Source of the DNA: a virus
Lineage: Duplodnaviria; Heunggongvirae; Uroviricota; Caudoviricetes
Length of the DNA stretch: 64,000 bases
Reading direction: 5' to 3' (one strand)
Virus record (IMG/VR): IMGVR_UViG_3300039208_000529
Location: 48,443 to 112,442 of that record
Shown piece by piece: positions 34,847 through 63,451 of the stretch. The position numbers and the translations under genes are program-made. Positions within the stretch are counted from its first letter, which is position 1. Every line of letters begins with the position of its first letter. Under the pieces are notes generated by a model. It made no database searches and was not told the DNA's origin. It saw only the letters and a program-made list of their open reading frames with translations.

Positions 34847-35563
34847 ATGACTGAAAATACTAAAGAATGGGCAGAGAATTTGTTGAAGCAAGGTGTTGAT
34901 ATTACTTTTGTGCTTGATAGATCTGGATCTATGTCTTCTATGGCAGACGATGCAGAGGGTGGAATGAATCAGTACGTTAAAGATAGACAAGATGAACCAT
35001 TTGATACGCGATTTACTTTTATTCGCTTTGACAATGAATACGAAGTTGTTTATGATGCCGTGCCAGTGGACGAGGTTGGTGAAATCAAAGTCGAACCCCG
35101 TGGAGCTACCGCCTTATTGGATGCAGTTGGTAGAGCAATTAACGAAACTAAAACAAGAATCGGTGCTATGTCAGAAGATCAACGTCCTAAGAAAGTTTTG
35201 TTTGTGATATTGACTGATGGTTATGAAAATGCTAGCCGCGAATTTTCTAGAGATACAGTTAAAGAGATGATTAAAACTCAGACAGATGACCACAATTGGT
35301 CTTTTGTTTTCTTAGGTGCTAATCAAGATGCATTTGCAGAAGCTGGTGGATTGGGCGTTATGCGTGGTAATGCTATTAATTTCACTGGAACTGCTAGTGG
35401 AATTAGCAGTGCTCTTAGCTACACTTCTCAGCAGACTAAAACTTATTCGTGTTCGCCACAAAATGTAGCAATGAATTTCTTTGATGGCAATGAGAATGTA
35501 GACGACGTTGTTAATGTTAATGATAACGATTCATCCGAAGGATTTACTGTAACCAAATCATGA
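34847..35563 (+). CDS. von Willebrand factor A domain protein
   Basis: MIDAS FVLDRSGSMS, TALLDA, ILTDGYENAS. Confidence 0.88.
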   Translation: MTENTKEWAENLLKQGVDITFVLDRSGSMSSMADDAEGGMNQYVKDRQDEPFDTRFTFIRFDNEYEVVYDAVPVDEVGEIKVEPRGATALLDAVGRAINETKTRIGAMSEDQRPKKVLFVILTDGYENASREFSRDTVKEMIKTQTDDHNWSFVFLGANQDAFAEAGGLGVMRGNAINFTGTASGISSALSYTSQQTKTYSCSPQNVAMNFFDGNENVDDVVNVNDNDSSEGFTVTKS

Positions 35564-36783
35564 AATTACTTTTTTGCGGTCCAGTTCTAGACTTTAGTGG
35601 GTTTGCTCATTCAAGTAGAAATTTTCTGCGTTGTTTGCAGCAGGACATAGAGTTAGATGTTGTCGTCAGAGCTTTAAAATATGATAAGCTTGATAGTGGA
35701 CAAGAGTTTGTTGTAGAATCTTGGTTATCTGAAGCACTTAAAAAGGATCTACAGAACATAGATGCCTGTATTCAGATGACTACATGTAATGTTGAAGCCG
35801 TTCCTATTCCTGGAATATGTAACGGTTTATATACTTTTCTTGAAACAGATAGAGTACAGCAATCTTGGGCGGCAAAGGCTCAGTCATTTGATTTTTTGAT
35901 GGTTCCTTGTAAGGCTAATGCTCAAGCTTTAATGAGATCTGGAGTTACAAAACCAATACTTGTTTGTCCTCCCCCTTGTGACACAGATGTTTATAAAAAA
36001 GAATATTTGCCATTCCAAATTAAGGATGTTGGAGATAGAACTGTATTCTATAATATTTGTCAATTAAGTACTAAAAAAGGTATCGACGCTTTATTGCGTG
36101 CTTATTATGCTGCTTTTGCAGATTGTCCAGATGATGTGTTATTAGTATTAAAAACATATATCAACATGAATGATCGCAGCAAAGATTCAGAAATCGTAAA
36201 GGGATACATTGACAGAATGAAAGTTTCTTGTCGTATTCCTGTTCAAAAACTTCCACCAGTTTTACCTATATTAGGTACGGTGTCTGATGATGAGATTAAT
36301 AGCTTGCATGAAGCAGGGCATGCGTACGTATGTTCTTCTAGAGCAGAAGGATGGGGTATTCCTGTTTTTGATGCTTTGGCACATGGCAAGACTGTGATTT
36401 CTAATGCTTCTGGTGGACTAGAAGACTATGTTAGGAATGAATTTGCGTTGGTATATGGCGGAACGTCAACATTTTTCTTTGATGCTCCACACCAAGATCC
36501 TGGACTGTTTACTGGACTTGAGCAATGCTTTGAACCATCTCCTGTAGAAATGGCTTTTCTAATGAGGAAATTTCATTTGCTTCGTAAAGATCATTCTGGC
36601 GAAGATGCTAAAAAAGAGTGGGAAGGTATTTTAACTAGACGCGAGAATGCCTCTCAATTAGGGGACAAGTTTGATTATAGAGTTGTTTCTAGCAAAGTAA
36701 CTACTCAAGTAAAAGAAGCCTTTTCTTCCTGGAAAGAAAATGGCTGTGTGCAATTTAATGCAAACAAGGACTTGGTAGAATGA
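35560..36783 (+). CDS. GT4 glycosyltransferase
   Basis: KKGIDALLRAY, SSRAEGWGIPVFDALAHG. Confidence 0.88.
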   Translation: MKLLFCGPVLDFSGFAHSSRNFLRCLQQDIELDVVVRALKYDKLDSGQEFVVESWLSEALKKDLQNIDACIQMTTCNVEAVPIPGICNGLYTFLETDRVQQSWAAKAQSFDFLMVPCKANAQALMRSGVTKPILVCPPPCDTDVYKKEYLPFQIKDVGDRTVFYNICQLSTKKGIDALLRAYYAAFADCPDDVLLVLKTYINMNDRSKDSEIVKGYIDRMKVSCRIPVQKLPPVLPILGTVSDDEINSLHEAGHAYVCSSRAEGWGIPVFDALAHGKTVISNASGGLEDYVRNEFALVYGGTSTFFFDAPHQDPGLFTGLEQCFEPSPVEMAFLMRKFHLLRKDHSGEDAKKEWEGILTRRENASQLGDKFDYRVVSSKVTTQVKEAFSSWKENGCVQFNANKDLVE

Positions 36784-37091
36784 GCTTGACAGATTGGGCC
36801 AAAGAACTTTTAGATAAGCCTTGGATTAAATCGAGACAATATAGAGAAATAAGAATTATATTTAGAGAATTACCGGTTGAGTCTGAAATATATGACATGA
36901 CGACAAATAAAAAGATGAAGCATGTTAAAAATATATCAATAGAGGGAGCCATTGATGCATCATGTTGGATGGCAACGCTTGAATGTTTTAAGATAATGTG
37001 TGAAAACGTAGGGGGAATAGAAGGCAAAACAGAGTTTTCTGACGAGACATATTTTGAAAAAGTTCTAGTGAAAGAGTTTGTAATATCATGA
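36780..37091 (+). CDS. hypothetical protein
   Basis: 103-aa coupled ORF with N-terminal WAKELL. Confidence 0.6.
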   Translation: MSLTDWAKELLDKPWIKSRQYREIRIIFRELPVESEIYDMTTNKKMKHVKNISIEGAIDASCWMATLECFKIMCENVGGIEGKTEFSDETYFEKVLVKEFVIS

Positions 37092-38107
37092 ACCAACAAC
37101 AAATTTATTATGAGCCGCAGATGCAATCTATCGCAGAGCGAGTGAATACTCCTGTGCGATTGGTACAATGTATCCAATGCCACAATGAAGAAGAATTTAT
37201 CGGCCGAACTCTTTCTTCTATTTACAGCGTAGTAGATAGAATTATTGTTATCGAGGGAGCAGTAGAAAACCGTCCTTACTCTACAGAAGACGGTCATTCT
37301 ACTGATAGAACTTTAGAAATTATTGAAGATTTTAAAAAGAATCATGACCCAGATAATAAAGTGATGTTAATTAAAATTTCCAAGCATTGGAAGAATCTTG
37401 AAGAAATTAAGCAGACCTTTTTGGATCTTTGTTTTCCTGGCGATTGGATAATTATTAATGATGCAGATGAATTCTATCGACCTGAAGATATTCTTAGACT
37501 GAGAGCGGCCATTGAACTTAATCCGCATGCCTGTGAATTTGTTCCAAACTTTTTACATTTTTATCGTGATGTGTGGCATGTGGCTGTTCCTGGTCCAGAA
37601 TGGCAGCCACAACATCAACGTATTTTTAAATTTGTGCGAGGAATGAGGTACAATAGTCATCCTGTCGTTACTGATCCGGCCGGTCACTGTACTTATTTTT
37701 CGTCTCATTATCAGCATCGTCGTGTTATGCTTAATGATTTTTGGATCTATCACTATGGATATGCTCGTTCAAATATGGATGAGATTATGAGACGAAAACA
37801 AGAATACTATAAGGGTGAGCTTGCTAAACACGGCGAAGCTAATGTTAAGTTTGATCAGAAGGTGAAAGATTGGTTTGATGGCACTGAACTCGTACTGGAA
37901 TTCACAGGGCAACATCCTGATGCTATTAAGGGACATCACATCTTTGAAAAGCCAACCCGTGTATATGAAGCTGGTTCTAAATCATGGGTTGACGATGAGT
38001 TTTACGGAAAGGCTATTCGAGGAGAGTCATATGGTAACATCTGGCTCTGTATGACTGGACAAGCTCAGCCACCGATGTCTCATTATCATAATGGCATGAC
38101 TATTTAG
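37088..38107 (+). CDS. GT2 (GT-A) glycosyltransferase
   Basis: HNEEEFIGRTL, DGHSTDRTLEI, WIIINDADEF. Confidence 0.85.
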   Translation: MNQQQIYYEPQMQSIAERVNTPVRLVQCIQCHNEEEFIGRTLSSIYSVVDRIIVIEGAVENRPYSTEDGHSTDRTLEIIEDFKKNHDPDNKVMLIKISKHWKNLEEIKQTFLDLCFPGDWIIINDADEFYRPEDILRLRAAIELNPHACEFVPNFLHFYRDVWHVAVPGPEWQPQHQRIFKFVRGMRYNSHPVVTDPAGHCTYFSSHYQHRRVMLNDFWIYHYGYARSNMDEIMRRKQEYYKGELAKHGEANVKFDQKVKDWFDGTELVLEFTGQHPDAIKGHHIFEKPTRVYEAGSKSWVDDEFYGKAIRGESYGNIWLCMTGQAQPPMSHYHNGMTI

Positions 38108-38115
38108 GAGAAATA

Positions 38116-38586
38116 ATGAAAAATTGGTTTAAAACGACGTTTTTATATAAATGGTTTCGTATAATATATGACCCAATTTATTTTAAAAGAGTATTGGGGA
38201 AAAATTTGTTTGCAGAATCTTTTACTCCTGATAAATCTGTAGGTCATCAACACGTATGGAAACCTGTTTCTGTACAGCCATCAATAATGGGTGCTAGAGC
38301 TGTTTCTACATGTATCTGTGGAATGAAGTTGTTACATTCTCGTGAGCATTTTGAAGAATGTAAGAATCATGATTGGGAGTTTCTTAGTCGTCATTCTGAT
38401 TCACATTTTGTATGTTTCAGATGCAAAGAGTGTCATGAGACAACATTGGTTCCGTCTCATGCTATTAGTAACGAATTAAGTGCTGGTAACGACGTTACGT
38501 ATGATAGTAATCATAAAGGCGTGAAAGTGTACAGAGATAATAAATTTGTCAAAGAGATAAAATACAAAGACATTTTAGATGCCTAA
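38116..38586 (+). CDS. hypothetical Cys/His protein
   Basis: AGGAG RBS; H..W...C.CG and H.W...C.EC repeats. Confidence 0.65.
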   Translation: MKNWFKTTFLYKWFRIIYDPIYFKRVLGKNLFAESFTPDKSVGHQHVWKPVSVQPSIMGARAVSTCICGMKLLHSREHFEECKNHDWEFLSRHSDSHFVCFRCKECHETTLVPSHAISNELSAGNDVTYDSNHKGVKVYRDNKFVKEIKYKDILDA

Positions 38587-39397
38587 ACTATCTTATCTAG
38601 TTTCTACTTATGACTCTGCTCATTATCTAGACCTACATCTAGAAAATCTAATTAAAAATCAGACAGATTCGGATTTTGAGGTTATAGTAGTGAACCCAGA
38701 TTCGCCTAGTACGGATGGTTTTATTGCTAGAAAATGGGAAGATGTAGACAGCAGAATTAAGTACATTTATTGGCCACATCGTGAGCCGTATGGTGCTTCG
38801 TGGTTGCGTGCTTGGAAAAATGCAAGAGGAAAGTTTGTCGTCAATAGTAATACTGACGATTTTCATCAACCGATGTTTACTGCTAAATTTTATGAAGCTA
38901 TGAGTAGAGCTTCTGACGATGTTGGTTTTTGTTATTCTGGCCTTGTGGTAATCAACGAGAATGGTGATATTGTTGGAGGAGGGAACAAGCCACCTTTTAA
39001 TCATGAATTAATGAGTAGAGAGTGTTGGGCTGGTCCACAAGTATGCTGGAGAAACGACGAAAAGTTTAATAATAGTTTGGATTGGGACTTAATGCAAACT
39101 AGGGCCGATGAGTACCATTCTGCGTTTGATTATTGGCTTTGGTTATATTTTATGTCCAAGGGATATGATGGTGTTGTGATTCCAGAGCAGCTTACGATCT
39201 ATACACAGCGTTCTGATTCAATAGAAAACAGTAACAAATGGGCCAACAATTGGGAGACATACTCGGCTATCTCTGAGTTTTTCCCTCATAATTTCAAAAA
39301 CCATTTAAAGCATGCCAAAGAATTTATTGAATTCGATAATCGTCCTCATAGAGAAGATTGGATTGCCACAATGCAGAAAGGCAAGAAATGGAAATAA
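38579..39397 (+). CDS. GT2 glycosyltransferase
   Basis: SYLVSTYDSAHYL, FEVIVVNPDS, NSNTDD. Confidence 0.8.
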   Translation: MPKLSYLVSTYDSAHYLDLHLENLIKNQTDSDFEVIVVNPDSPSTDGFIARKWEDVDSRIKYIYWPHREPYGASWLRAWKNARGKFVVNSNTDDFHQPMFTAKFYEAMSRASDDVGFCYSGLVVINENGDIVGGGNKPPFNHELMSRECWAGPQVCWRNDEKFNNSLDWDLMQTRADEYHSAFDYWLWLYFMSKGYDGVVIPEQLTIYTQRSDSIENSNKWANNWETYSAISEFFPHNFKNHLKHAKEFIEFDNRPHREDWIATMQKGKKWK

Positions 39398-39741
39398 TTG
39401 AGAAGCCTTGGGGCCGCGAAAAGATTGTTGAACTAAATGACAAATACTGCATGAAAATCTTAGAAATTAATGCGGGCAAAAGATTGAGCTTGCAATATCA
39501 TAAGATTAAAAGAGAAACGATGTACTGTCTATATGGCATTGGTGAATTGGAAGTTTATGCTTTAGACGGTGCTCAAAAAGTTTTTTCAATGTTGCCCGGT
39601 CGATTCTTTACTATTAGTCCTGGACAGGTGCATCGTATTATTGCTGGAAAGCATTCTAATCTAGTTGTTATGGAGGCGTCCACTCCGGAAATGGACGACG
39701 TAATTAGAGTTCAAGACGATTATGGCAGAACTGAAGATTAA
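39388..39741 (+). CDS. cupin, mannose-6-phosphate isomerase type II C-terminal-like
   Basis: EKPWG...KILEINAGKRLSLQYH...RETMY...PGQVHRI...EASTPE.DDVIRVQDDYGR. Confidence 0.85.
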   Translation: MEIIEKPWGREKIVELNDKYCMKILEINAGKRLSLQYHKIKRETMYCLYGIGELEVYALDGAQKVFSMLPGRFFTISPGQVHRIIAGKHSNLVVMEASTPEMDDVIRVQDDYGRTED

Positions 39742-39949
39742 TAAAGATACAAAACGTTGGGCTTTTGATCTGTTAGTTAGCACTGATCCGCAGATTAAAG
39801 AACTGCGTGATGCATTGATTACTGAGATGGCATACAATATGTATCTTGAACATAATTTAAAGCCTGGAACAATTCCGTTCAACAAGCTGAAAACAGAAGA
39901 GAGACGTGAATATTTTCAACGAGTTGAGGAACTAATATATAATGACTAA
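39722..39949 (+). CDS. hypothetical protein
   Basis: 75-aa coupled ORF with N-terminal WAFDLL. Confidence 0.55.
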   Translation: MAELKINKDTKRWAFDLLVSTDPQIKELRDALITEMAYNMYLEHNLKPGTIPFNKLKTEERREYFQRVEELIYND

Positions 39950-40994
39950 AATCAAAGTAATGCACTATCTTACCAATCTTGGGTTGGGAGGTACAGAAAA
40001 GACATGTCAGCTATTTGCTAATAACATGAATACTTCAGATTTTGATGTTTATCTTGCATATGAAAAAGCTGGAGATAAGACTAGGTTGGATCTGTTCAAA
40101 TGTAATAAAGTTGAAGTAGATAAGAATTCGGACTCTTTAAATGAAGTTATCAAATCTTTTCAGATAGATATTTTTCATGTCTATAGATCCGGCTTTCCTG
40201 AGTATCCTGTTCCTGGAAAGGATATAAACGTAAATAGTTTTGTAGAAACGAATGTGTTTGGAATGTTAGACAGAAATCCAAAGATTAATCGTAGTCTTTT
40301 CATGAGCGAGTGGCTTATGTTCGATGTTTGTCGTAAGATAGGTGGCAGACACGAAAGATTTGATTTTGTAAACAACCCTGTTGAGAGTCCGTGTACTGAT
40401 GAAAACATGCGGACTCAGTTTCCCGAAGACGCAATTATTCTTGGGAGATGTGGCAGACCAGATAATGGAATTTATAATGATATCAATGTTCAGGCCGCCA
40501 GAATTTTACGGCTTCAAGGCTATCCTATTCATATACTTGCGGTGGCTCCTCCGACTAATATGGTTAACGATTGTCGTCAGTTTGATGTACCTCTTGTTGT
40601 CATAGAGCCGACTATTGATCCTATAGTATTAAGTAAGTTTTATAATACAATTGATATTTATGCTCACGCAAGAGCGGATGGCGAGACGTTTGGAGTAAAT
40701 ATTGCAGAAGCAATGATTCACAGCAATCCTGTTGTAACCCATATTGCTACTCCAAGTTTTCCAGGAATGGGAGTTTTTCAAGCACAAACGAAACTGGTTG
40801 ATGACGGAATTACTGGATTTGTGGTCCAAAATGATTGTAACGAGTATGCTGAAGCTCTTAAGAAACTGATTGACAGTAAAAACCTGCGTGATAGAATGGG
40901 TATAGCTGGTCTCGAAAAAGCGAATCATGAGTTTCATGTTGATGCTTGTGTTCAAAAACTTGAGAGGATTTATAAAGAGGTAATGTATGTCTAA
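39942..40994 (+). CDS. GT4 glycosyltransferase
   Basis: LGLGGTEK, DIYAHARADGETFGVNIAEAM, DGITGFVV. Confidence 0.88.
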   Translation: MTKIKVMHYLTNLGLGGTEKTCQLFANNMNTSDFDVYLAYEKAGDKTRLDLFKCNKVEVDKNSDSLNEVIKSFQIDIFHVYRSGFPEYPVPGKDINVNSFVETNVFGMLDRNPKINRSLFMSEWLMFDVCRKIGGRHERFDFVNNPVESPCTDENMRTQFPEDAIILGRCGRPDNGIYNDINVQAARILRLQGYPIHILAVAPPTNMVNDCRQFDVPLVVIEPTIDPIVLSKFYNTIDIYAHARADGETFGVNIAEAMIHSNPVVTHIATPSFPGMGVFQAQTKLVDDGITGFVVQNDCNEYAEALKKLIDSKNLRDRMGIAGLEKANHEFHVDACVQKLERIYKEVMYV

Positions 40995-41190
40995 GATGTA
41001 TGAAGTTAGGGCACAGTGGCCAGTCGTGGTTGAGGGATTGTTTTATGTTGTTGCCGATAGTGAAGAGCACGCTGTCAGTCTGGTTGAAAATGGAGCTGTA
41101 GATCCAGCCTGGGATGATTTTGTTGATACTTCAAGAGATCAGATTGAGATATTAGAAGCAAACGAAACAGATGATGCTGACTCAGACTGA
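40987..41190 (+). CDS. small acidic hypothetical protein
   Basis: 67-aa ORF with GAGG upstream. Confidence 0.55.
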   Translation: MSKMYEVRAQWPVVVEGLFYVVADSEEHAVSLVENGAVDPAWDDFVDTSRDQIEILEANETDDADSD

Positions 41191-41524
41191 AGAACTTAAG
41201 TATATAATGCGAGATTTTGACCTTGCTGCTGTGAGGCTTGATGTTTCTACTTCTGTTGAATCGTTTGATCTTTGTACAGTAGGTAGTAGAGCAACTAAAA
41301 CATTCCAAGGAAAGCGGACATTTAATTTTTCTGTTAGTTTTCTTCGCCCTCGTACTGAATGGAAAAATATTGAAGCTGGTAAGGAATCAGAGGAAAATCT
41401 TCAGGTTTTTTTTGGTTTAATAAAAGAACTTGGGTTTTATATTCACTCTAGAACTGAAGAGTATCATACTGACGGAACAATTGTAGTAAATATAGATGGG
41501 GAGATTATAGGTGTCAAAAATTAA
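41171..41524 (+). CDS. hypothetical protein
   Basis: 117-aa coupled ORF. Confidence 0.55.
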   Translation: MMLTQTEELKYIMRDFDLAAVRLDVSTSVESFDLCTVGSRATKTFQGKRTFNFSVSFLRPRTEWKNIEAGKESEENLQVFFGLIKELGFYIHSRTEEYHTDGTIVVNIDGEIIGVKN

Positions 41525-42638
41525 AGTTGTGCATCATACCAAAACGGTTGGTTATAGCGGTACTGATCGTACAGCACAATTATTTTGTAAATATCTTGCT
41601 AAGAGCGATCGATATGAGCCGTTTATTGTTTATAGACAACCTGATGGCAATAATCAGAGACTGGACGTTGCTCGTAAATGGTTGGGCGACGATCACGTCA
41701 TTCCTTATAGTGTGAGTTTTGGTAAGCGTGGTCGAATTCCTCCTTATATGCCAGATAGCGATAACTTACACGAAGTATTGAAAGTTATTGATCCTCAAAT
41801 TATTCATATGCATAGATCTGGTTATAGCGAATGGCCTGGTTTCAAATATCTTTATCCACAAGCTAAATGGGTAGAAACCAATATCTTTGGCTTTAATGAC
41901 ACAAATCCTGAACGTCAATTTGATTTAAATGTCTATATTTCTGAATATATTAAAGATGTAGCAATGCGTGCCGGCAATCAGGACGGCCCTGTTTTATATA
42001 ATCCAATAGAGCAGCCACATCTTGATGTGACAATTGAAAATATTATAGCATGTAAGGTACATCTTGCAGCCAATCATGGCATACCACATATGGTTGAAGG
42101 TAAGCGACCAGTGTTAATTGGTCGTGTTGGTAGGGCCGATAACTTTGATCCAATTTCATTACTAGCTTTTGCTAAGATTGAAAAAAGTAATCCCGAAGCT
42201 TATTATTTCGTTGTTAATGCTTGTGATCAGTGGAGATCTACAGCTGAGCGTTTAAAAATCAAGAATATATTCTTTTTAGACCCTATTATTAGTGATGAAG
42301 CTTTATCTAGATTTTATATGGGATTAGATATATATGCTCATGCTAGATCTGACGGTGAGTGTTGCCCATGTAACATTCAAGAAGCAATGATGCATGGTGT
42401 TCCTGTTGTGTCGCATTATGGATCAACATATAATGGGCATCCCGAGATTATAGAATCTACTGGTTTTGTTGTTCCGATTGCCGACCACGAAGCTTACGCC
42501 GAGGTTTTGGGACAGTTAGTGAATGATCAAGAACAAAGAGCCTACTATGGTCGGGAAGGTCGTCGTAGAGCGATGAGATATTTTGATGCTGAGTGTGTTA
42601 CAAATCATCTAATCAAGATGTATGATTCAATTCTATGA
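41511..42638 (+). CDS. GT4 glycosyltransferase (paralog of 39942..40994)
   Basis: DIYAHARSDGECCPCNIQEAMMHG; IGRVGRAD. Confidence 0.88.
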   Translation: MSKIKVVHHTKTVGYSGTDRTAQLFCKYLAKSDRYEPFIVYRQPDGNNQRLDVARKWLGDDHVIPYSVSFGKRGRIPPYMPDSDNLHEVLKVIDPQIIHMHRSGYSEWPGFKYLYPQAKWVETNIFGFNDTNPERQFDLNVYISEYIKDVAMRAGNQDGPVLYNPIEQPHLDVTIENIIACKVHLAANHGIPHMVEGKRPVLIGRVGRADNFDPISLLAFAKIEKSNPEAYYFVVNACDQWRSTAERLKIKNIFFLDPIISDEALSRFYMGLDIYAHARSDGECCPCNIQEAMMHGVPVVSHYGSTYNGHPEIIESTGFVVPIADHEAYAEVLGQLVNDQEQRAYYGREGRRRAMRYFDAECVTNHLIKMYDSIL

Positions 42639-42973
42639 ATAAAGAGACTACAAAATGGGCAAGAGAATTGCTAGAAACTCTTCCTCCAGAGTGGATAAAG
42701 TTAATTCCAGAAAGATTTTGGCACGAATCATACCATCCAAACGAAGCTTTACTTTTGGTAAGAGGTAAAGACATTAGCCGCATTCAAGTACAAGAAGAAA
42801 TTTCAACGATGAGATATCCGTCAACGGTTAACGTTCCTCAGACTGATATTTTTTCTGTAACTTGGCCAATTAATTATGATAAAATACATGAATTTACTGT
42901 TTGTAAAAGAGAAACTGTCGTAAAACATAATAAATCCCTTATAGTATATGTCGATGAAAACTATTTACGTTGA
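42635..42973 (+). CDS. hypothetical protein
   Basis: 112-aa ORF with N-terminal WARELL. Confidence 0.55.
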   Translation: MNKETTKWARELLETLPPEWIKLIPERFWHESYHPNEALLLVRGKDISRIQVQEEISTMRYPSTVNVPQTDIFSVTWPINYDKIHEFTVCKRETVVKHNKSLIVYVDENYLR

Positions 42974-43316
42974 TTTTGATGGTGTAATTCACAGCTATGT
43001 TTCTGAGTTTACTGAAGCTCATGAGATCAATGATCCCCCTCTTCCGGGAGCATTGAAATGGTTGGAAGGTTTGGTTGATCAGTTTCATGTGTTTATTTAC
43101 TCTACCAGACTTGTTCATGGAGCTGAAGTAGAAAGAGCTATAGTAGATTGGCTTGTAAAGCACGGTATGTCTATGTACCAAGTAGATAAGCTTGGTTTTA
43201 CAGCAGTAAAACGTGGAGCAAGTGTATACATTGATGATAGGTGCTGGAGATATGAAGGTGGTGCATATCCTACTACACAAGAACTTCAGGATTTTAAACC
43301 GTGGAATAAAAGATGA
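42948..43316 (+). CDS. HAD-superfamily hydrolase (5'-nucleotidase-like)
   Basis: YVDFDGVI motif I, YSTR, K and YIDD motif IV. Confidence 0.75.
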   Translation: MSMKTIYVDFDGVIHSYVSEFTEAHEINDPPLPGALKWLEGLVDQFHVFIYSTRLVHGAEVERAIVDWLVKHGMSMYQVDKLGFTAVKRGASVYIDDRCWRYEGGAYPTTQELQDFKPWNKR

Positions 43317-43714
43317 GTATTGATTTTAGTCAATTTCGAGCTAAACCTATTCGTCGTAGGTTTACAAAGGAAACCGAGCCGAGATGGAAGACGAAAGATG
43401 GAACTGTAATGCTCATGTCTCAAATGGAAGATTCTCATCTTATCAATGCTATAAAAATGGTGATGAGAAAAATCTATAAAGAATACAAAGATAACTTTGA
43501 TCTTTCTGGGGATAAGCTAGTCGAGTTTATAGAATATAATCCGTTAAGAACTTTTGGGATTAAAGATCTATTGAATGAAGCAAAATCAAGAAAAAGTATT
43601 GACTGCTCCATGTTTGGGTCATACGCCAGATCTTTGTCAGCCCGAGAAGAGGTTAACGATAAAGAATCTGTTAAACGTTGGGCATCGAGATTGTTAGATT
43701 TATTAAATGACTAA
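43313..43714 (+). CDS. hypothetical protein
   Basis: 133 aa; W.TKDG..M..S.MEDSHLIN; C-terminal WASRLL. Confidence 0.6.
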   Translation: MSIDFSQFRAKPIRRRFTKETEPRWKTKDGTVMLMSQMEDSHLINAIKMVMRKIYKEYKDNFDLSGDKLVEFIEYNPLRTFGIKDLLNEAKSRKSIDCSMFGSYARSLSAREEVNDKESVKRWASRLLDLLND

Positions 43715-44420
43715 AATAATTTCATTTTCATTATGGGGTAATGATCCAAAGTATTGTCAGGGTGCTATTAAGAATGCAGATTTAGCCGCAGAAATTTATC
43801 CTGATTGGACATGTCGTTTTTATTGTGGAGCAAGTGTTCATTCTAATATCATATCCAATTTGTTAGATCGCGACAATACAGATATTCTTTGTCATGGTCA
43901 GGATGGCGATTGGACGGGTATGTTTTGGCGATTTGAACCTGCTAGTGAAAATGATGTAGAAGCAATGATTTCGAGAGATTGTGATTCAAGGTTGAGTTAC
44001 CGCGAAAAAGCTGCTGTAGACGAATGGATTGAAAGCGATAAGGGATTTCACATCATGCGAGATCATCCCTGGCATGGTTCCAAGATATTAGGAGGTATGT
44101 GGGGAGTCAAACGCGGAGTGTTGTCAGACATGCGAAATCTTATGTCAAACTGGGATCAACAGAACAGATGGCAAACTGATCAAGATTTTCTTAATGAAGT
44201 AATCTATCCGAGAATTGTTAATGATTCTATGGTTCATGCACAATTTTTTGCCATGGAAGAACATGCGATTCCTTTTCCTGGCTTTCGAGATGGGTTAGAA
44301 TTTGTTGGTCAAGTTTTCGATGAAAACGATATAACTGTTTCTGAACATCAACACGTACTTTTTAAAGCATTAAAAATGCAAGGCGAACCCGTAAGACAAT
44401 TACCTGATTATCTAAGATGA
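43707..44420 (+). CDS. putative GT-A-like glycosyltransferase
   Basis: ISFSLWG...Y..GA..N, DxD-like SRDCDSR, FHIMRDHPWH, ILGGMWG, DQDFL. Confidence 0.6.
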   Translation: MTKIISFSLWGNDPKYCQGAIKNADLAAEIYPDWTCRFYCGASVHSNIISNLLDRDNTDILCHGQDGDWTGMFWRFEPASENDVEAMISRDCDSRLSYREKAAVDEWIESDKGFHIMRDHPWHGSKILGGMWGVKRGVLSDMRNLMSNWDQQNRWQTDQDFLNEVIYPRIVNDSMVHAQFFAMEEHAIPFPGFRDGLEFVGQVFDENDITVSEHQHVLFKALKMQGEPVRQLPDYLR

Positions 44421-44740
44421 ATGACTCATTTTTGAAACGTTTACGCAAACTAAGCGTAGAGCGATGTGAACAATATTTTTTCCCTATTAATCATTGGAGC
44501 GTGCTTGAGTGGGCCGGTGCAGCGGCCGGAGAGGCTGGTGAAACTGCCAATGTAGCCAAGAAGATAAAGCGAGGCGACAAGAATCCATGGATCCTTAAAG
44601 ATCAGCTCGCAGATGAAATTGCTGATACTGTTATTTATTTAGATTTGTTATGTGCTAGCGAGGGAATTGATCTTGAAGACGCCATTCGGCACAAATTTAA
44701 CAAAGTATCCCAAGAACACGGTTATGAGAAAGAACTATGA
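44417..44740 (+). CDS. MazG-like NTP pyrophosphohydrolase
   Basis: GEAGETANVAKK...DEIADTVIYL. Confidence 0.85.
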   Translation: MNDSFLKRLRKLSVERCEQYFFPINHWSVLEWAGAAAGEAGETANVAKKIKRGDKNPWILKDQLADEIADTVIYLDLLCASEGIDLEDAIRHKFNKVSQEHGYEKEL

Positions 44741-45804
44741 GAGCTTTATCATTCGACGACATTCAGTTAGTTCCTCGTTTTAATAATATTCCAAGTCGTA
44801 AAGATGTAAGTACCAGAGTGCAATTTGGCGATCTTACATTGGATGTTCCAATATTTTCGTCCAACATGGATACAATCACTGACTCTAAAATGGCTCGTAC
44901 TATGTATAAGCTGGGTGGGTTGGGGTTTCTACATAGATTCTGTTCTATTGAAGAGAACATTTCTATGTATGATTACGCAACTAAGGAATGGCAAAATACT
45001 AGAGAGCCACGCAAAATAGAGGCTGAAGCCGTTGTTTCACTAGGTGTTAATGAAGGATTAGATCGATTTCATGCCCTATATGAAATAGGTGCTCGTTATT
45101 TTTGCATTGATGTAGCACATGGTCACAGTGAATCTGTTGGCAGGATGATAAAGTCACTGAAGAAATTTAGCGATGATATTTATGTTGTGGCTGGAAATGT
45201 ATGTACAAGAATGGGAGCGGAGTATCTAGCTGGCTGTGGAGCAGATGCAATTAAAATTGGTGTCGGTCCCGGCAGTGCATGTACAACAAGAATTAAAACT
45301 GGTTTTGGTATTCCGCAATTCACAGCTATTAGAGAATGCTCACGAGTCAATGTTTTCAAGATTGCTGATGGAGGCATTCGTACTCCAGGAGACGCCGTGA
45401 AAGCTTTTGCTGCTGGAGCAGATGCTATTATGCTTGGTGGAATGTTGGCTGGCTGTGATGAGACTCCTGGCGAATTGATCACTGATATTGCACAAGATTT
45501 TCGCGGCGATTGGAAGGCGACTAACGATAGTTACAAAATCTTCCGTGGTATGGCCTCGAAAGAAGCTCAAGATGATTTTATGGGATCTATGTCAGACTGG
45601 AAAGCAGCAGAGGGTGTTGAAATAACAGTTAAAGTCAAAGGTCCAGCTTCAAATGTAGTCAATGAATTAATGGGCGGCATTCGAAGTGGAATGACATATT
45701 GTGGAGCGAATAATATTCGTGAGATTAGAGAGCGTGCTGAATGGGTAGAAATTTCACCAGCCGGTGCAGCTGAAGCTAAACCCCACGGAGAAGGAAGATT
45801 ATGA
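44737..45804 (+). CDS. IMPDH/GMP reductase family enzyme without CBS domain (GMPR-like flap)
   Basis: LSFDDI, IDVAHGHS, AGNV, GVGPGSACTTR, ADGGI, FRGMAS, EGV, GIRSGMTY. Confidence 0.92.
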   Translation: MRALSFDDIQLVPRFNNIPSRKDVSTRVQFGDLTLDVPIFSSNMDTITDSKMARTMYKLGGLGFLHRFCSIEENISMYDYATKEWQNTREPRKIEAEAVVSLGVNEGLDRFHALYEIGARYFCIDVAHGHSESVGRMIKSLKKFSDDIYVVAGNVCTRMGAEYLAGCGADAIKIGVGPGSACTTRIKTGFGIPQFTAIRECSRVNVFKIADGGIRTPGDAVKAFAAGADAIMLGGMLAGCDETPGELITDIAQDFRGDWKATNDSYKIFRGMASKEAQDDFMGSMSDWKAAEGVEITVKVKGPASNVVNELMGGIRSGMTYCGANNIREIRERAEWVEISPAGAAEAKPHGEGRL

Positions 45805-46181
45805 AATTCAGTTACTTAAGAAAAGACGACGATGGTCATTGGTATCTTGTTCCAGAAGAAGATGTTGAACGCTTCGATAAATTGATGGAAGAATCTTATC
45901 AAGTAGATTCTGATTCGGATAGATTTTATGAAGTCTGCGAACTCATAAGTCAATTTCCTAGCTGTGAAAACATCAGAGATCTGAAGATTATTATGAACAA
46001 ACCAAGAACAGAAATGATTTGCAAGGGATGTGGTTGTTTTTCTAGTGCTCAGTATTGTCATCATTGTTCAACGAATCCGCTATATCCTAAACTAATTGCG
46101 GCAGAACAAAAAATTGCTGAGTTAGAAAAAAAGCTAGCTTATGCAGGTTGGGAGACTAATCCAGACAGAATGGGAAAATGA
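45801..46181 (+). CDS. hypothetical protein (possible fusion of two small genes)
   Basis: N-terminal KDDDGHWYLVP half; C-terminal CKGCGC...CHHC half. Confidence 0.55.
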   Translation: MKFSYLRKDDDGHWYLVPEEDVERFDKLMEESYQVDSDSDRFYEVCELISQFPSCENIRDLKIIMNKPRTEMICKGCGCFSSAQYCHHCSTNPLYPKLIAAEQKIAELEKKLAYAGWETNPDRMGK

Positions 46182-47062
46182 GAATATTAGTTTCTTACAG
46201 AGGAATTCCTCAATCGCCAGGCTGGGCGACCGGCGATATGGTTGTCAAGGCTCTTAGAGAACTTGGTCACGAAGTTCACGCATATGCTAAGAATTATCAA
46301 ACCAGCACTTGGGTAGAATGTCATTTACTGCACCCTCATTTGCAGATAGACTATGACTTATGGATATTTATGGAGTGCAATGATGGCGATCAACAATATC
46401 TTGGCTTAAAAGACGTAAAGACCAAAAAGAAAGTTTCCTGGACATTCGACAATTCATACTATCCCGACAATCTAGCGTCCCTTCTTTCCTATTTCCAGTT
46501 TGATTATCACTTCTTGGCTAATCCACTATTGTTAAACCAATTTCCGAATAGTCATTATTTACCCTATGCCTGTGATCCTGAACTACATTCTAGGTCTTTC
46601 GATAGAAAGAGAGAACATTTTTGTACTTTAGTTGGGTCAATTCGTGAAGATAGAAAAAATCTTGCTAAGTCTCTTAAAAAACATAATGTTGATTTAAAGC
46701 TTATTGGGGAAGTGTTTCGAGAAGAATATATTGATACACTAGGATCTTCTCGTATAATTGTAAATCAGAATCCTGGAGTTGGTGCCGGATTACTTAACAT
46801 GCGAACATTTGAAGCTCCTGCGGCTGGAGCATTACTTTTAATGGAACGTCGAGACTATGAAGCGAATCCGGGAATATTACGAAATAACAAAGACTGTATT
46901 GTTTTTGACTCTGATAGTCATCTTGCTGAGTTGTTATCTAACCTGGAAAAGGATACAACTGGCTTGGTTGAAAATCTACGTATGGCTGGACAATCTTCCG
47001 TTTTGAGTCAACATACATACGTAAAACGCTGCAAACAATTGTTGGATATAGTTAATGCTTAA
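46178..47062 (+). CDS. CgeB-like GT-B glycosyltransferase
   Basis: LPYACDP, SRIIVN, NMRTFEAPAAGALLL, HTY..R. Confidence 0.8.
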   Translation: MRILVSYRGIPQSPGWATGDMVVKALRELGHEVHAYAKNYQTSTWVECHLLHPHLQIDYDLWIFMECNDGDQQYLGLKDVKTKKKVSWTFDNSYYPDNLASLLSYFQFDYHFLANPLLLNQFPNSHYLPYACDPELHSRSFDRKREHFCTLVGSIREDRKNLAKSLKKHNVDLKLIGEVFREEYIDTLGSSRIIVNQNPGVGAGLLNMRTFEAPAAGALLLMERRDYEANPGILRNNKDCIVFDSDSHLAELLSNLEKDTTGLVENLRMAGQSSVLSQHTYVKRCKQLLDIVNA

Positions 47063-47717
47063 ATTAAACCAAGCTATTGGATCATATTTGGAAGATCCCG
47101 AAGGGTATACAGATCTCGCAGAGTATTCTTTTAAAGAAGAATTAAAGCTTGGCGGTTGGTGTCCGGCAACAATCATGTCTTTTTTAAACACTGCTGTTTC
47201 CAGTATGCCTGAAGATCAGTATTATCTAGAAATAGGAAGCTGGTGTGGTAGAAGTTTATGTGCGGCATTAAAAAACAATGATAAGCGGGCAATTGTAATT
47301 GATCCTTTAGATCATATTGCTGGCGGTAAACAAGTCTTTGATGAATGGAGTCGTAATGTAAGATCGGCTGGTATTGAAGATAGAGTTGCTCTGCATAGAG
47401 TTAGAGCAGAGCAATTTATTGGTGATCTTCCATCTATTGGAATTTTCTTTTATGATGGCAGTCATGACTCTGGGCACACTTATGAAGGACTATCTCGATA
47501 CGAGCGATTCTTAGCAGATGAGGCAATAATTATTGTGGATGATTATTTTATTTATGGCGGAAATAATCAGCAAGTATTGCCTGGACATTCTTTGAATATA
47601 CAGGATCCAGTTAAGGCGGATACAGATAGATGGATTGCTGAAAACAAAGGTAAGATTAGTATGATTCATATCACTAAGTTTTTACATGGTCAGGCTATTA
47701 TACATTATAAGCGATGA
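47055..47717 (+). CDS. class I SAM methyltransferase (Methyltransf_24-like)
   Basis: YLEIGSWCGRS, FFYDGSHD, IIVDDY. Confidence 0.82.
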   Translation: MLKLNQAIGSYLEDPEGYTDLAEYSFKEELKLGGWCPATIMSFLNTAVSSMPEDQYYLEIGSWCGRSLCAALKNNDKRAIVIDPLDHIAGGKQVFDEWSRNVRSAGIEDRVALHRVRAEQFIGDLPSIGIFFYDGSHDSGHTYEGLSRYERFLADEAIIIVDDYFIYGGNNQQVLPGHSLNIQDPVKADTDRWIAENKGKISMIHITKFLHGQAIIHYKR

Positions 47718-48370
47718 AGGTAAGCGTTTTAATTTGTGCTCATAGTCAAGATGAAAACTACGACAAGCTGCTTTGTCGAGCACTTGAGTCGCTAGCTATT
47801 CAGAGCTACGATGATTTTGAAACTGTTTTAGTACTAGACGAATGTTGGGATGGTACTAGATCGGCGGTAAAGCCTTATGAATATGTGCTAAACATGAGAA
47901 TATACGATAGACCACATAAACAAGGGTTAGCTATTGCTAAAAACTTTGGTCTTGAACGTTGTAATGGTGAATGGATTGCTTTTCTTGATGCAGATGACAG
48001 ATATATGTCTTGTAAACTTGAAGTTCAGATGAACTTTCTGGAACATAATCCGCATGTAAGTGTTTGCGGTACTCTTGCGTGGGATTGGTACAATGAATTT
48101 GATATGAAGCCTTCTTGTTTTCAGCCCGGACAATACCAAACTCACGACCAAGTTATGCAGAGATTACCAAGCGAGAATGTCATGTGTCATGGCAGCATTA
48201 TGGTTAAGCACGATGCACTGAAAGCTGTTGGTAATTATCCGACAGACAAGATTTATTTGGGTCGAGAAGATTGGGAACTTTGGCAGCGTATGGCTAATGC
48301 GGGATTTGTGTTTCATAACATTCCAGAGAGACTATATATTTATAGTATGGGAACTAGTGTTGAGCGATAA
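47714..48370 (+). CDS. GT2 glycosyltransferase
   Basis: VSVLI, GLAIAKNFGL, WIAFLDADD, KLEVQ, EDWELWQR. Confidence 0.9.
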   Translation: MKVSVLICAHSQDENYDKLLCRALESLAIQSYDDFETVLVLDECWDGTRSAVKPYEYVLNMRIYDRPHKQGLAIAKNFGLERCNGEWIAFLDADDRYMSCKLEVQMNFLEHNPHVSVCGTLAWDWYNEFDMKPSCFQPGQYQTHDQVMQRLPSENVMCHGSIMVKHDALKAVGNYPTDKIYLGREDWELWQRMANAGFVFHNIPERLYIYSMGTSVER

Positions 48371-48372
48371 AG

Positions 48373-48567
48373 ATGTGGATCTTGATTGAAACAGACTTTG
48401 ATAACAACGATGCAAATTGTTGCTGGGGTCCTTTTAAAGACTTTTCTGAAGCTGCTGACTTTGGAAATCGTAGAATTGCCTTATTGGCTAACGAGTGGGA
48501 CGGTGAAGAAGATGGCTTCTTGATTAATTGTTTAAAGTGGGAAATTCGTCGGTTAAATACACCATGA
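48373..48567 (+). CDS. small hypothetical protein
   Basis: 64-aa ORF filling the gap. Confidence 0.5.
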   Translation: MWILIETDFDNNDANCCWGPFKDFSEAADFGNRRIALLANEWDGEEDGFLINCLKWEIRRLNTP

Positions 48568-49550: not shown

Positions 49551-49758
49551 TCATGGTACTGCTACTTTTAAAGATGATCAATATTTTAAGGAGCTTAGAG
49601 TACAAAATAAAAATGGAATAATTACTGCTTATCTCCCTGAACAAAATATTTTTGCAGTTCATTTTGGAGGTCCAGAGTGGATTACATTTAACTGGACGGA
49701 AGAAGAATTTTTAGAGAAATTTGAGGTAGAATTAAATGAAGGGCCACAACCCCTATAA
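49540..49758 (+). CDS. small hypothetical protein
   Basis: 72-aa coupled ORF. Confidence 0.5.
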   Translation: MMFNHGTATFKDDQYFKELRVQNKNGIITAYLPEQNIFAVHFGGPEWITFNWTEEEFLEKFEVELNEGPQPL

Positions 49759-50383
49759 AAATACTCCAGACGATCATGATTTCATGGAAGAAGAGCATAT
49801 TGCTCGCTTCTTGCGAAATGATGGAACCGGCGTCGATAACTTAGGCCGCCGATCATTAGGCAATATTGTAAAAAGTCATGGTCATCCAGATGTATTAGAT
49901 ATAGCCTGCGGTACTGCTGTTAATTGGGAAACGTTTAAAAAATTTAATATGCCGTGTAATTACACAGGGCTTGATAGAACTAAGAATCTGTTAACTCACG
50001 CAAAGGAACTTTATGGAGATGAAATTTCTTTAGTTGAGGGGTATGCTCAAGACTTACCATTTAAAGACAACAGTTTTGATATTGTAATTCTCAGGCATAT
50101 TCTTGAACATCTTCAAGAAGGATATGAAGATGTAATTAAAGAGGCCCTTCGTGTAACGAGAAAAGAGCTTGTGGTTGTGTTCTTTTTAGATCTTACAATA
50201 TCAGAAGAAGATCGCATCCAAGAGTCAGATCCCGATGAAAACGGCTGTACGTATTTTTGGAATGAATACAGCCACTCTAAGTTTATGCGTTTTGTTTCAA
50301 GCCTTGGTGTTCGTCCTGCTGTTGGATATATACGCAGTCCAGACGCAGCACACGCAGATACTATTTTTAGGTTAATCAAATGA
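49736..50383 (+). CDS. class I SAM methyltransferase (Methyltransf_11-like)
   Basis: VLDIACGT, YTGLD, EGYAQDLPFKDNSFDIV...HILEHL. Confidence 0.88.
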   Translation: MKGHNPYKNTPDDHDFMEEEHIARFLRNDGTGVDNLGRRSLGNIVKSHGHPDVLDIACGTAVNWETFKKFNMPCNYTGLDRTKNLLTHAKELYGDEISLVEGYAQDLPFKDNSFDIVILRHILEHLQEGYEDVIKEALRVTRKELVVVFFLDLTISEEDRIQESDPDENGCTYFWNEYSHSKFMRFVSSLGVRPAVGYIRSPDAAHADTIFRLIK

Positions 50384-54354: not shown

Positions 54355-54356
54355 AA

Positions 54357-58553: not shown

Positions 58554-58563
58554 GATCAATAGA

Positions 58564-58716: not shown

Positions 58717-58717
58717 T

Positions 58718-60176: not shown

Positions 60177-60177
60177 A

Positions 60178-60852: not shown

Positions 60853-61568
60853 TGGACAAGAAGAAGTTAGCTGCTCTTTATAAAGAAATGTCTATTGCTC
60901 AAGTTGCTGATCATCTTGGTGTAGCACGCTCAACCGTTTATCATTATCTTGTTAAATTTGGTATTAAGATACGAAGCAAAAGTGATGCACAGCGGAAGCA
61001 TCTTGCAGACTTTCCGCATCAAAGACTTGGTAACAAACATAAAGAAGAAACTAAAAAACAGATATCCGCCTCTAGTAAAAAGTTTTGGGAGAGTCAAGGT
61101 GGTAAAAATCAAAAAGATAGATTGGCTAAACTTCGTAAGAAAGAGTGGAATAACAGCTCTAAGAAAAAACGAAGTAACAAGATCTCGCTTATGAATCAAG
61201 CGAAACGACCAACTCCTGGATCTCTCTCAAAGTTTGGGCTTAGATTTGCCGATTATCTTCGAACGCACGAATCTAGAGTAGATACATGTATTCCGTTGAC
61301 AGCTAAGCATGTTTCTGACATAGTGTTAGAGGATAGAAAGATAGTCATTGAGCTGGTAATGCCAGTATCGGTATATGGAGAAGAAGCCGCTAGAAAACTA
61401 TCTAAGACGTATGAACGCTTATGTAGAGAACTGAACAAGTCTGGCTATCGAGTGGCAATTGTGGAAGATAAATCGAATTCTGTTTCAAATGCTCGCTGTG
61501 AAAGACTGTATGAGAAACTGGTAAGGTTTTTCGGAAGTAAGAAACAAAAAATAACAATAAAATCATGA
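60852..61568 (+). CDS. HTH + NUMOD3-like + degenerate DUF559-like domain (homing-endonuclease-like)
   Basis: SIAQVADHLGVARSTV HTH; GNKHKEETKKQIS NUMOD3-like; DIVLEDRKIVIEL. Confidence 0.6.
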   Translation: MDKKKLAALYKEMSIAQVADHLGVARSTVYHYLVKFGIKIRSKSDAQRKHLADFPHQRLGNKHKEETKKQISASSKKFWESQGGKNQKDRLAKLRKKEWNNSSKKKRSNKISLMNQAKRPTPGSLSKFGLRFADYLRTHESRVDTCIPLTAKHVSDIVLEDRKIVIELVMPVSVYGEEAARKLSKTYERLCRELNKSGYRVAIVEDKSNSVSNARCERLYEKLVRFFGSKKQKITIKS

Positions 61569-62218
61569 GTAGTAGAAAAGACACTAATTGGGAAGAGCAT
61601 CTTCTCGAAGATGAAATAGTCGTAAAAGAAGGCAAGAAGATTGTTAAACTTGTTGGATTGCAACGACTAGCTGAACAAGCTGGACTCATTCGAAGTAGCT
61701 GCACTTTGCAGCATATTCCCGGTAAAAACTTAGGTATTGTCCAATGCATTTATACCACAGAATTTGAAGATGGATTTGTCTCTGTAGGTACTGGCGACTG
61801 CAATGAATTGAATACCGATCAAGAGTTTGTCTGTTATCCAACAGCAATTGCTGAATCTCGTGCTGAATCTCGTTCTCTTAAGAAGGCTTTAGGTATTCGT
61901 CTTCTTACGGCAGAAGAGATTGGGTTTCAAAATGTCGATAGCATGGAGACTTCTCCAAACAAACCAATAGCTGAAAATGTTGTAAAAGCAATTCAGGTAT
62001 TATGCGAAGAGAAAAATATCGAACAAGTTGCCGTTGTAGAGTCGGTAGTAAAAGACAAAGAACGTGCTATTGCTATCTATGAACTTTCTCAGTTAACTAA
62101 CGAGGAAGGACAACGTGCTTTAGAATTTTTAAATGGAAAAAAGTCTGCTGGCTCTAAAAAAACGACCAGTAGATCTGAAAGAAAACAAGAGCTGTTAGAC
62201 AAAAAGAAAGGCACATAA
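61565..62218 (+). CDS. hypothetical protein, possibly Rad52/22-like single-strand annealing protein
   Basis: AIAESRAESRSLKKALGI...AEEI resembles the SSAP C-terminal helix motif; weak. Confidence 0.4.
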   Translation: MSSRKDTNWEEHLLEDEIVVKEGKKIVKLVGLQRLAEQAGLIRSSCTLQHIPGKNLGIVQCIYTTEFEDGFVSVGTGDCNELNTDQEFVCYPTAIAESRAESRSLKKALGIRLLTAEEIGFQNVDSMETSPNKPIAENVVKAIQVLCEEKNIEQVAVVESVVKDKERAIAIYELSQLTNEEGQRALEFLNGKKSAGSKKTTSRSERKQELLDKKKGT

Positions 62219-62219
62219 G

Positions 62220-62579
62220 ATGAAAGTTAGTTATACAACAGCAAACAGAAGAATGACAGTAGAACTAGAGGGAGACACACAGAAATCTGTGTTTGAAGCT
62301 ATCTCTCAATTTCAGGAGGTTTTTGAAGAGACTGCATGCGGCAAATGCGACAGCGAGAGAGTAAGATTTATCGTTCGGGAAGTAGACGGAAATCAGTATT
62401 TTGAACTGCGTTGCCTAGATTGTGGAGCACGTCTTGCCTTCGGGCAACATCGTCAGGGTGGAAGTTTATTCCCTGTTCGAAAAGCCGGCAAAGATGATAA
62501 ATCTGGCCTTGAAGAAGGTACTTGGCTTCCCAGTGGGGGCTGGATGCGTTGGGATAATAAGCAAGGAAAAACTGTATGA
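62220..62579 (+). CDS. zinc-ribbon hypothetical protein
   Basis: CGKC...CLDCGA. Confidence 0.65.
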   Translation: MKVSYTTANRRMTVELEGDTQKSVFEAISQFQEVFEETACGKCDSERVRFIVREVDGNQYFELRCLDCGARLAFGQHRQGGSLFPVRKAGKDDKSGLEEGTWLPSGGWMRWDNKQGKTV

Positions 62580-62965
62580 ATTTGTCATTTAGTGAATATC
62601 AAAAACGAGCTATTAGTACAGCCATTTATAGAGAGAGTAATGACGATTTGGTTCATCATTTGACTGGTGGACAGTATAATGGTCAAATTTCTCAGTTGTT
62701 AAATATGTTATACGCTAGTCTCGGACTTGGCGAAGTTGGAGAATTACAAGGAAAAGTTAAAAAAATCATTAGGGATAGCGGTGGCCATATTTCAGATGAA
62801 ACTAGAGCCGCTATCTCTAAAGAGCTTGGTGATGTTTTATGGTATCTTTCAGTGACGGCTTCAGAATTTGACTTGGATCTTGGAAGTATTGCTGAGCAAA
62901 ACTTGGACAAGCTTGCTAACCGTAAAGAGCGTGGCACTTTAAAGGGAAGTGGCGATAATAGATGA
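62576..62965 (+). CDS. MazG-like NTP pyrophosphohydrolase (second copy)
   Basis: GEVGELQGKVKK..RD...KELGDVLWY...N..KL..R..RG...GSGDNR. Confidence 0.88.
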   Translation: MNLSFSEYQKRAISTAIYRESNDDLVHHLTGGQYNGQISQLLNMLYASLGLGEVGELQGKVKKIIRDSGGHISDETRAAISKELGDVLWYLSVTASEFDLDLGSIAEQNLDKLANRKERGTLKGSGDNR

Positions 62966-63255
62966 GTCCTTTTGAAGGAAAAGAATTAAGAGCCCGATGG
63001 TGCCCTCAATGTGATAAACAAAGACTTCTTAAGCCTCTTGATAAAGAGGTAAGTTACAATAAAGAAGAATTTGAGACAAGAGACGGCTCTAAAGTTAGTC
63101 TATTCACTGATATATGTGAGTATTGCCAAGTAAGGAACTTTAGAAAATATTTTGAGCCGACGAAAGCAGACGCAAAGAAGGTTATGAAAGCTTTAAAAGA
63201 AGCTACCGAAGGTGATAATCCTCAAGATGAAACATCTCTCGAAGAAATGCTCTAA
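62962..63255 (+). CDS. zinc-ribbon hypothetical protein
   Basis: WCPQC...CEYC. Confidence 0.6.
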   Translation: MSPFEGKELRARWCPQCDKQRLLKPLDKEVSYNKEEFETRDGSKVSLFTDICEYCQVRNFRKYFEPTKADAKKVMKALKEATEGDNPQDETSLEEML

Positions 63256-63451
63256 TGAATTAGTAGAGTGGGCAAAGAATTTATTAGAAAACCCACCAGG
63301 CCCGAAAAACACCTTCGGAATAATTAATGCTACTATTTCTATGTTTCCTCCTGCCCCTGACAATAGGGTCAATAATTTTACTGGAACTTTAAACTTTCCG
63401 AGTGGAATAGTAGAAATACGAGACACAATCGGGGAATGGCGAAGCACGTAA
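63212..63451 (+). CDS. hypothetical protein (start uncertain)
   Basis: 79-aa ORF containing WAKNLL near the N-terminus. Confidence 0.5.
   Translation: MIILKMKHLSKKCSNELVEWAKNLLENPPGPKNTFGIINATISMFPPAPDNRVNNFTGTLNFPSGIVEIRDTIGEWRST

Follow-up and report, generated by a model that had tools for sequence, protein, structure and literature searches.

Why should six phage proteins that have nothing else in common share the motif W-A-x-x-L-L (WA..LL) close to one end of the chain? The question is raised by the 64,000-nucleotide stretch of DNA analysed here (the window), which corresponds to bases 48443-112442 of IMG/VR record IMGVR_UViG_3300039208_000529. This record represents a single aquatic, uncultured virus of 177,556 bp (~178 kb) with 40% G+C. 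A preliminary description of the window had listed six such sites and proposed a portable targeting or docking peptide or, alternatively, a DNA element that seeds new gene ends. Our six-frame scan returned exactly six WA..LL sites in the window, all on the + strand and all in the coding frame, with Trp codons at 34868, 36795, 39758, 42656, 43679, and 63269. As had been described, each of them lies near a terminus. Trp is residue 8, 6, 13, 8, and 15 in the five N-terminal bearers and residue 123 of 133 in the single C-terminal case.

The scan of the full record gave nine exact WA..LL sites and two WA..VL variants, the latter on a pair of paralogs (m10v and m11v), i.e., 11 bearer proteins of 65-238 aa, which are 11 of the 285 modelled genes (~4%). 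All six sites of the preliminary description are thus real, but they make up only about half of the set. The 11 sites are all in the frame of their gene and near a terminus; five are on the - strand, matching gene direction. In the ten N-terminal bearers, Trp is residue 6-16, which is 5-15 residues past the start codon. Possible weak members are WAKYQL (genome 148670-148999), WADDLE (137074-137283), WARWTL (9905-10057), and WWKKVV (19781-20026), three of them N-terminal and one in a C-terminal half. The DNA runs that hold the phage are two, at assembly level and from one aquatic study, and no RNA run is listed. For window positions 34800-43800, which hold five of the six window sites, the contigs assembled independently from two samples show zero differences.

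Chance was assessed with a gene model of 285 genes and 54,813 aa and with 2,000 within-protein shuffles as the null. Exact WA..LL was observed nine times versus 0.35 expected, and the shuffle maximum was 3. The preliminary description had roughly estimated ~0.2 chance hits, which is close to our value, and had made its proposal depend on the motif exceeding the genome-wide background, as it does here. Eight of the nine exact sites fall within the first 16 residues, a region that contains 8.3% of all residues (P = 1.9e-8). An unbiased enumeration of every four-residue pattern within the N-terminal 25 residues of all proteins ranked WA..LL first, with 8 proteins versus a shuffled-null maximum of 4. 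A chance origin of the motif is excluded.

The constraint acts on the peptide and neither on the DNA nor on the RNA. The varying Ala and Leu codons noted earlier were seen again: Ala is encoded by four codons (GCA, GCT, GCC, and GCG) and Leu by five (TTG, TTA, CTT, CTG, and CTA). Over the 18 motif bases, the mean pairwise nucleotide identity is 0.632 versus 0.626 ± 0.012 for sequences back-translated with the codon usage of the genome. The mRNA around five sites showed no folding beyond that of shuffled sequence (z -0.5 to +0.7). Each bearer gene directly adjoins its upstream neighbour or overlaps it (gap -32 to +1), which leaves no space for a promoter cassette. Since neither DNA constraint nor RNA structure was found, the distance to the ATG varies, and there is no room for a cassette, the proposed DNA element that seeds gene ends is abandoned. 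As W, A, L, and L are kept despite full synonymous scrambling, the motif appears to be under purifying selection.

The shape of the peptide was predicted from two bearers, m1 and m8. The m1 protein (238 aa; 34847..35563, + strand) is a vWA protein of the MIDAS type with the tag ...TKEWAENLLKQG..., in which the WA..LL codons occupy 34868-34885. In the AlphaFold2 models, made with alignments, both proteins show a helix at residues 3-13 (pLDDT 65-67), a linker of 2-4 residues, and a confident body; in m1 the vWA fold begins at residue 16. W, A, L, and L lie on one helix face. The median hydrophobic moment of the 11-mers is 0.58, and the proteome mean and 95th percentile are 0.30 and 0.59, respectively. 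A Pro or Gly follows the tag within six residues in nine of the ten N-terminal bearers versus 50% in the background (P = 0.01). The tags have net charges between -3 and +3, six of the 11 being uncharged overall or negative, and carry acidic residues at both ends. The tag does not need a free N-terminus, as is evident from the only C-terminal bearer, m5, a basic protein of 133 aa (43313..43714, + strand) that ends in ...ESVKRWASRLLDLLND-stop (WA..LL codons 43679-43696). Hence, the motif is predicted to be the core of an amphipathic helix of ~11 residues with Ser, Thr, Asn, or Asp as N-cap, followed by [K/E]-W-A-x-x-L-L-[D/E] and usually by Pro or Gly within six residues.

That the tag is a portable add-on to otherwise unrelated proteins is well supported. 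As the preliminary description had held, the bearers are otherwise unrelated: in an all-versus-all BLASTP, only the motif of ~10 residues aligns, except in the paralogs m10v and m11v. Family profiles from PHROG start past the tag, phrog_7371 at residue 15 of m1 and phrog_1933 at residue 14 of m8. It had been suggested to look for homologs that lack the extension, and such homologs were found for three bearer bodies. None of the 161 vWA homologs of m1 carries the tag (0/79 from IMG/VR and 0/82 from metagenomes), and their modal distance from Met to DRSGS is 12 residues versus 23 in m1. A metagenome-wide scan with m1 gave no relative above 56% identity and none with a tag, and a degenerate DNA pattern (tag plus DRSGSM) searched across IMG/VR gave six matches, all due to chance. 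The closest homolog of m8 is untagged and starts with M-TTPKYPNV, while m8 itself reads M-NDIQKWAQKLLDN-PCKYPHV. The body of m3 (residues 28-70) has a homolog in a related phage (G003), where it stands behind a different, untagged N-terminus. Word-indexed homolog searches with m11v and m8 returned only self-matches. Against the PDB, Foldseek found nothing for m1 beyond the generic vWA fold and no match for the body of m8. As three bearer bodies belong to families without the tag, it was gained at least three times independently, in addition to its inheritance in one paralog family. The nucleotide identity at the level of the null, the untagged homologs, and the detached helix of the models together bear out the proposed conservation of a portable peptide at the protein level.

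Another phage contig (L089:~9900-10216, + strand) encodes a homolog of the m8 body with a different N-terminal extension, ...DFAEAKALIQGPP..., ahead of the same domain. This extension may be an analogous tag, with helix and Pro-linker, of a different lineage.

The tag is private to this lineage and missing even from its family-level relatives. Twelve IMG/VR contigs share the terminase at 59-64% identity. In five whole records of relatives, no terminal WA..LL was found, and the pattern counts were near those of a reversed-pattern control. With the looser pattern W...[hydrophobic][hydrophobic], the tagged phage (G000) gave 19 sites versus 5.2 expected, and relatives gave 5 versus 4.7, 7 versus 4.1, and 4 versus 3.8. 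When a tag profile was run exhaustively with HMMER against 1.84 billion representative proteins, it recovered four of the phage's own bearers and no other phage protein; sensitivity was limited, as only four of the 12 training sequences reached E <= 0.001. The remaining six matches are non-phage-like proteins, each with at least two tag-like stretches and mostly with internal repeats (e.g., resembling leucine-rich repeats). Megablast of window positions 34000-44000 against GenBank phages gave no match. Nearly all bearer genes are without counterpart in the relatives and are wedged among conserved genes. The phage is deeply novel, and its lineage is known from metagenomes only: its terminase large subunit (L002:12272-14323, + strand) has at most 27% identity to any cultured phage, with Bacillus phages as the best matches, and most of its head proteins belong to no Pfam or PHROG family. 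Our literature search found no paper on this motif and matched only the eukaryotic nuclear-receptor WxxLL/LxxLL helices. New here are the 11-protein set, the peptide-only constraint, the repeated gain, the lineage restriction, and the head-assembly genes as candidate receptors.

Two tag-like sequences were dropped from the set. The C-terminal WSHRLV of a conserved 328-aa protein (window 48564-49550) has matches in all three of the relatives that were compared. WEEHLL belongs to a conserved 217-aa protein (window 61565-62218, + strand) and is ancestral in that family: its N-terminus TNWEEHLLEDE corresponds to TNWEELLEEG, TDWEAELIAG, and TDWEKELQDG in relatives. The tag may mimic this N-terminus as the native ligand, or the similarity could be a coincidence.

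What does the tag do? Its anatomy, i.e., a helix with an apolar face, a short linker, unrelated cargo, and untagged homologs, matches that of peptides that load compartments or dock to hubs, so the helix probably docks all bearers to one common receptor. The Trp/Ala/Leu/Leu face would fit a groove of this receptor, and the tag, which no fewer than 11 unrelated accessory proteins of this lineage have acquired at one end, would gather all bearers at one place with their variable bodies on a short tether. The receptor that we tentatively put first is the interior of the assembling prohead, either the inner surface of the capsid or a core that a 617-aa protease-scaffold protein forms. The tagged proteins would then be enclosed in the head and delivered along with the DNA. 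This choice follows from three points: the capsid is the sole compartment encoded, a protease-scaffold core is present, and the precedent of phage T4 is exact in its logic. A genome search for bacterial microcompartment (BMC) shell proteins (PF00936) and encapsulin (PF04454) gave no match, which leaves the capsid as the only protein compartment. The head module comprises terminase, portal, the 617-aa protease-scaffold protein, and a 346-aa HK97-type major capsid protein. The 617-aa protein (L129:4654-6507, + strand; genome 37653-39506) is fusion-like, with a protease-like fold (S78/S77-like, residues ~8-245), a long coiled coil, a Lys/Pro/Gly-rich stretch, and a conserved C-terminal tail. The phage thus probably makes a proteolytically matured prohead, with a protease assignment that comes from an Atlas feature and structure leads only. 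Compared with the tag-less relatives, the protease-scaffold protein has ~55% identity and the adjacent major capsid protein 84-88%, which would leave room for a private pair of tag and receptor. A complex prediction with residues 236-617 of the 617-aa protein, the major capsid protein, and m8 scored 0.00; as it was run without controls, it carries no weight either way.

In T4, IPI, IPII, and IPIII (internal proteins) as well as the protein Alt carry a capsid-targeting sequence (CTS), according to Mullaney and Black (1996), whose work PMC7411985 and PMC3012670 cite. DarB of phage P1 has an N-terminal packaging signal (PMC9024508). The likeness to the T4 CTS lies in a portable N-terminal peptide (~10-20 residues) as the sole feature common to unrelated small phage proteins; the ten N-terminal bearers with their unrelated bodies are such a case. 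Also as in T4, there is a predicted prohead with protease and scaffold core. The internal proteins of T4 are small, as are the bearers here. To our knowledge, the sequence of the T4 CTS has no apparent likeness to the tag. Further differences were noted. The T4 CTS is at residue 1, while the tag begins 2-12 residues past Met and is once C-terminal; no consistent L/I-x-E cleavage site follows the tag; the bearers are dispersed across the genome and both strands; and terminase, portal, and head module are not T4-like, as the low terminase identity to cultured phages (<=27%) illustrates.

The other systems with a comparable peptide are the BMCs, in which PduP, PduD, EutC, and CcmN carry encapsulation peptides (PMC4594438). 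These are likewise N- or C-terminal amphipathic helices with a poorly conserved linker on unrelated cargo and were found via homologs without the extension. A terminal amphipathic helix, a linker, and absence from homologs are all found for the tag. The tag helix is shorter (~11 residues versus 15-20), and so is the linker (2-6 residues versus mostly 20-90). Moreover, the tag conserves the residues themselves, whereas BMC encapsulation peptides share properties only, and unlike BMC systems, the phage has no shell genes.

Several observations weigh against the prohead as receptor. In three relatives (91-100% complete by CheckV), no N-terminal pattern of any sequence occurs above the null; as these relatives have the same head module, the tag is not a general need of this head type. 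At the level of Pfam, no match to a T4-type (S77) or HK97-type (S78) protease was found. After the tag, L-L-[D/E] or V-L-D is seen in 7 of the 11 bearers and K, V, or R in the rest, which is not a consistent protease site. The bearers occupy a long + strand block behind the tail genes as well as - strand blocks in which small genes lie close to tRNA and nucleotide-metabolism genes. They may therefore differ in the time of expression, which fits an always-present hub better than the prohead. Finally, five bearers are interleaved with sugar-pathway genes, a hint of a different, island-linked role.

A hub other than the capsid is nearly as likely as the prohead, although it is itself doubtful. 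The tag would then dock to a host protein that is present throughout infection (RNA polymerase, a chaperone, or a protease adaptor, with the tag as a recruitment or degradation signal) or to a phage hub such as a MoxR-type AAA+ ATPase. All that was found on the add-on, the helix, and the linker holds for such a hub just as well, hub-binding peptides typically occur at either terminus, and bearers in both strand blocks probably represent several expression classes. With a conserved host hub, however, the tag would be expected in related phages, yet the five relatives are without it. For the MoxR variant, a 489-aa AAA_5/MoxR-like ATPase is present here and missing from the three relatives, and one bearer, m1, is a vWA protein, the classical partner class of MoxR. 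Against it, the ATPase gene (genome 155359-156828) lies ~71 kb from m1 rather than in a conserved pair, and no homolog of the ATPase was found in the 10-kb surroundings of 80 loci with untagged vWA homologs, so no dedicated pairing of vWA protein and ATPase is seen. Nor does the ATPase have a match in solved structures (PDB) or NCBIfam.

The ATPase gene (L006:5359-6828, - strand), with an Atlas score of 0.95-0.97, adjoins the gene for a 421-aa protein with a match to a PHROG family whose annotation is HNH endonuclease. The two may form an McrBC-like or MoxR-like module.

Less probable than either receptor, though still worth naming, is an undescribed phage-made assembly or sorting device that is neither the capsid nor a known hub. 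Tag and receptor would have arisen as a pair in a single lineage, with fusions carrying the tag to a dozen unrelated accessory genes, and large phages may repeatedly invent such private address codes.

The neighbourhoods of the bearers suggest another role, in which the tag is a recognition leader and an enzyme of the sugar-pathway island glycosylates or otherwise modifies the tagged proteins. Five of the 11 bearers (m1 to m5) are within this island. For m1, m2, and m4, the gene begins at the stop codon of a glycosyltransferase gene or overlaps it. The orphan m2 (103 aa; 36780..37091, + strand) has the tag MSLTDWAKELLDKP with WA..LL codons at 36795-36812, is recovered by the tag profile as P0006, and has an ATG that overlaps the stop codon of the glycosyltransferase gene upstream. 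The m3 gene (75 aa; 39722..39949, + strand; tag ...DTKRWAFDLLVSTDP; WA..LL codons 39758-39775) starts over the stop of a cupin sugar-isomerase-like gene. The orphan m4 (112 aa; 42635..42973, + strand; tag MNKETTKWARELLETLPP; WA..LL codons 42656-42673) again has an ATG that overlaps the stop codon of a glycosyltransferase gene; the profile recovers it as P0007, and no related loci were found for it in IMG/VR. The other six bearers are distant from the island, in - strand blocks of small uncharacterised genes or beside MazG-like and ribonucleotide reductase genes. The sixth window bearer, the orphan m6 (74 aa; 63227..63451, + strand), has the tag ...NELVEWAKNLLENPPGP with WA..LL codons at 63269-63286 and is recovered as P0008. 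For most bearers, searches in Pfam, PHROG, and NCBIfam gave no function. We regard the modification leader as improbable. The six distant bearers do not fit it, the glycosyltransferases are matched in all three untagged relatives, the tag conserves Trp, Ala, and Leu and has no fixed acceptor (Ser, Thr, or Asn), and no family of peptide-modifying enzymes was found among the lineage-specific proteins of the island.

Within the island (window 33043-50383), genes that are matched in all three relatives, many of them glycosyltransferase genes, alternate ~1:1 with small unmatched genes (3-0-3-0-3-0... when written as the number of relatives with a match). This alternation suggests repeated insertion of lineage-specific open reading frames between the pathway genes. 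Elsewhere in the genome, a 201-aa protein (L002:1310-1915, - strand; genome 20310-20915) with PCRF (E 4e-17) and RF-1 (2.5e-27) release-factor domains is without match in the three relatives. A lineage-specific 421-aa protein (L005:12807-14072, - strand; genome 143807-145072) contains an SPFH/Band-7 domain (E 4e-7), a membrane-scaffold fold.

The tag might also be without present function, left over from common descent or from a former recombination cassette, of DNA or RNA, at the starts of genes, or it might be a product of chance. The paralogs m10v and m11v did inherit it through duplication, and the conserved 217-aa protein has its ancestral tag-like N-terminus. We nevertheless consider this very unlikely: shuffles, pattern discovery, and positional statistics exclude chance, the DNA similarity is no higher than the peptide demands, the RNA shows no excess folding, the offset from the ATG is variable with one C-terminal instance, and a single descent is at odds with several gains in three untagged families. 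Selection on W, A, L, and L through synonymous scrambling points in the same direction. Slightly less probable still is that the helices bind one another or their own bodies (oligomerisation or autoinhibition) with no common external receptor. Self-association is common for short amphipathic helices, and the helix confidence of the AlphaFold2 models is only moderate. Packing on unrelated bodies, however, would not preserve these four residues, proteins of unrelated folds carry the identical motif, and the Pro/Gly linkers part the helix from the body. The least probable reading is a membrane-targeting amphipathic helix, which would agree with the high hydrophobic moment and the interfacial Trp, but just ~four residues per 11-residue helix are apolar, bacterial membrane-targeting helices are longer and basic, and the charge of -3 to +3, zero or negative in 6 of 11 tags, with acidic ends is unfavourable for anionic bacterial membranes.

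If the tag is an address, as docking to one common receptor would imply, it offers one handle on about a dozen orphan phage proteins, and its receptor would reveal their common site of action. With its ~11 residues, it could then also serve as a minimal tag by which foreign proteins are loaded or co-localised in a phage system. As family-level relatives do not have the tag, it is one of the rare short linear motifs whose origin and spread can be followed. Sorting signals private to a lineage may, as this case suggests, be a common and largely undescribed organiser of the accessory proteomes of big phages.

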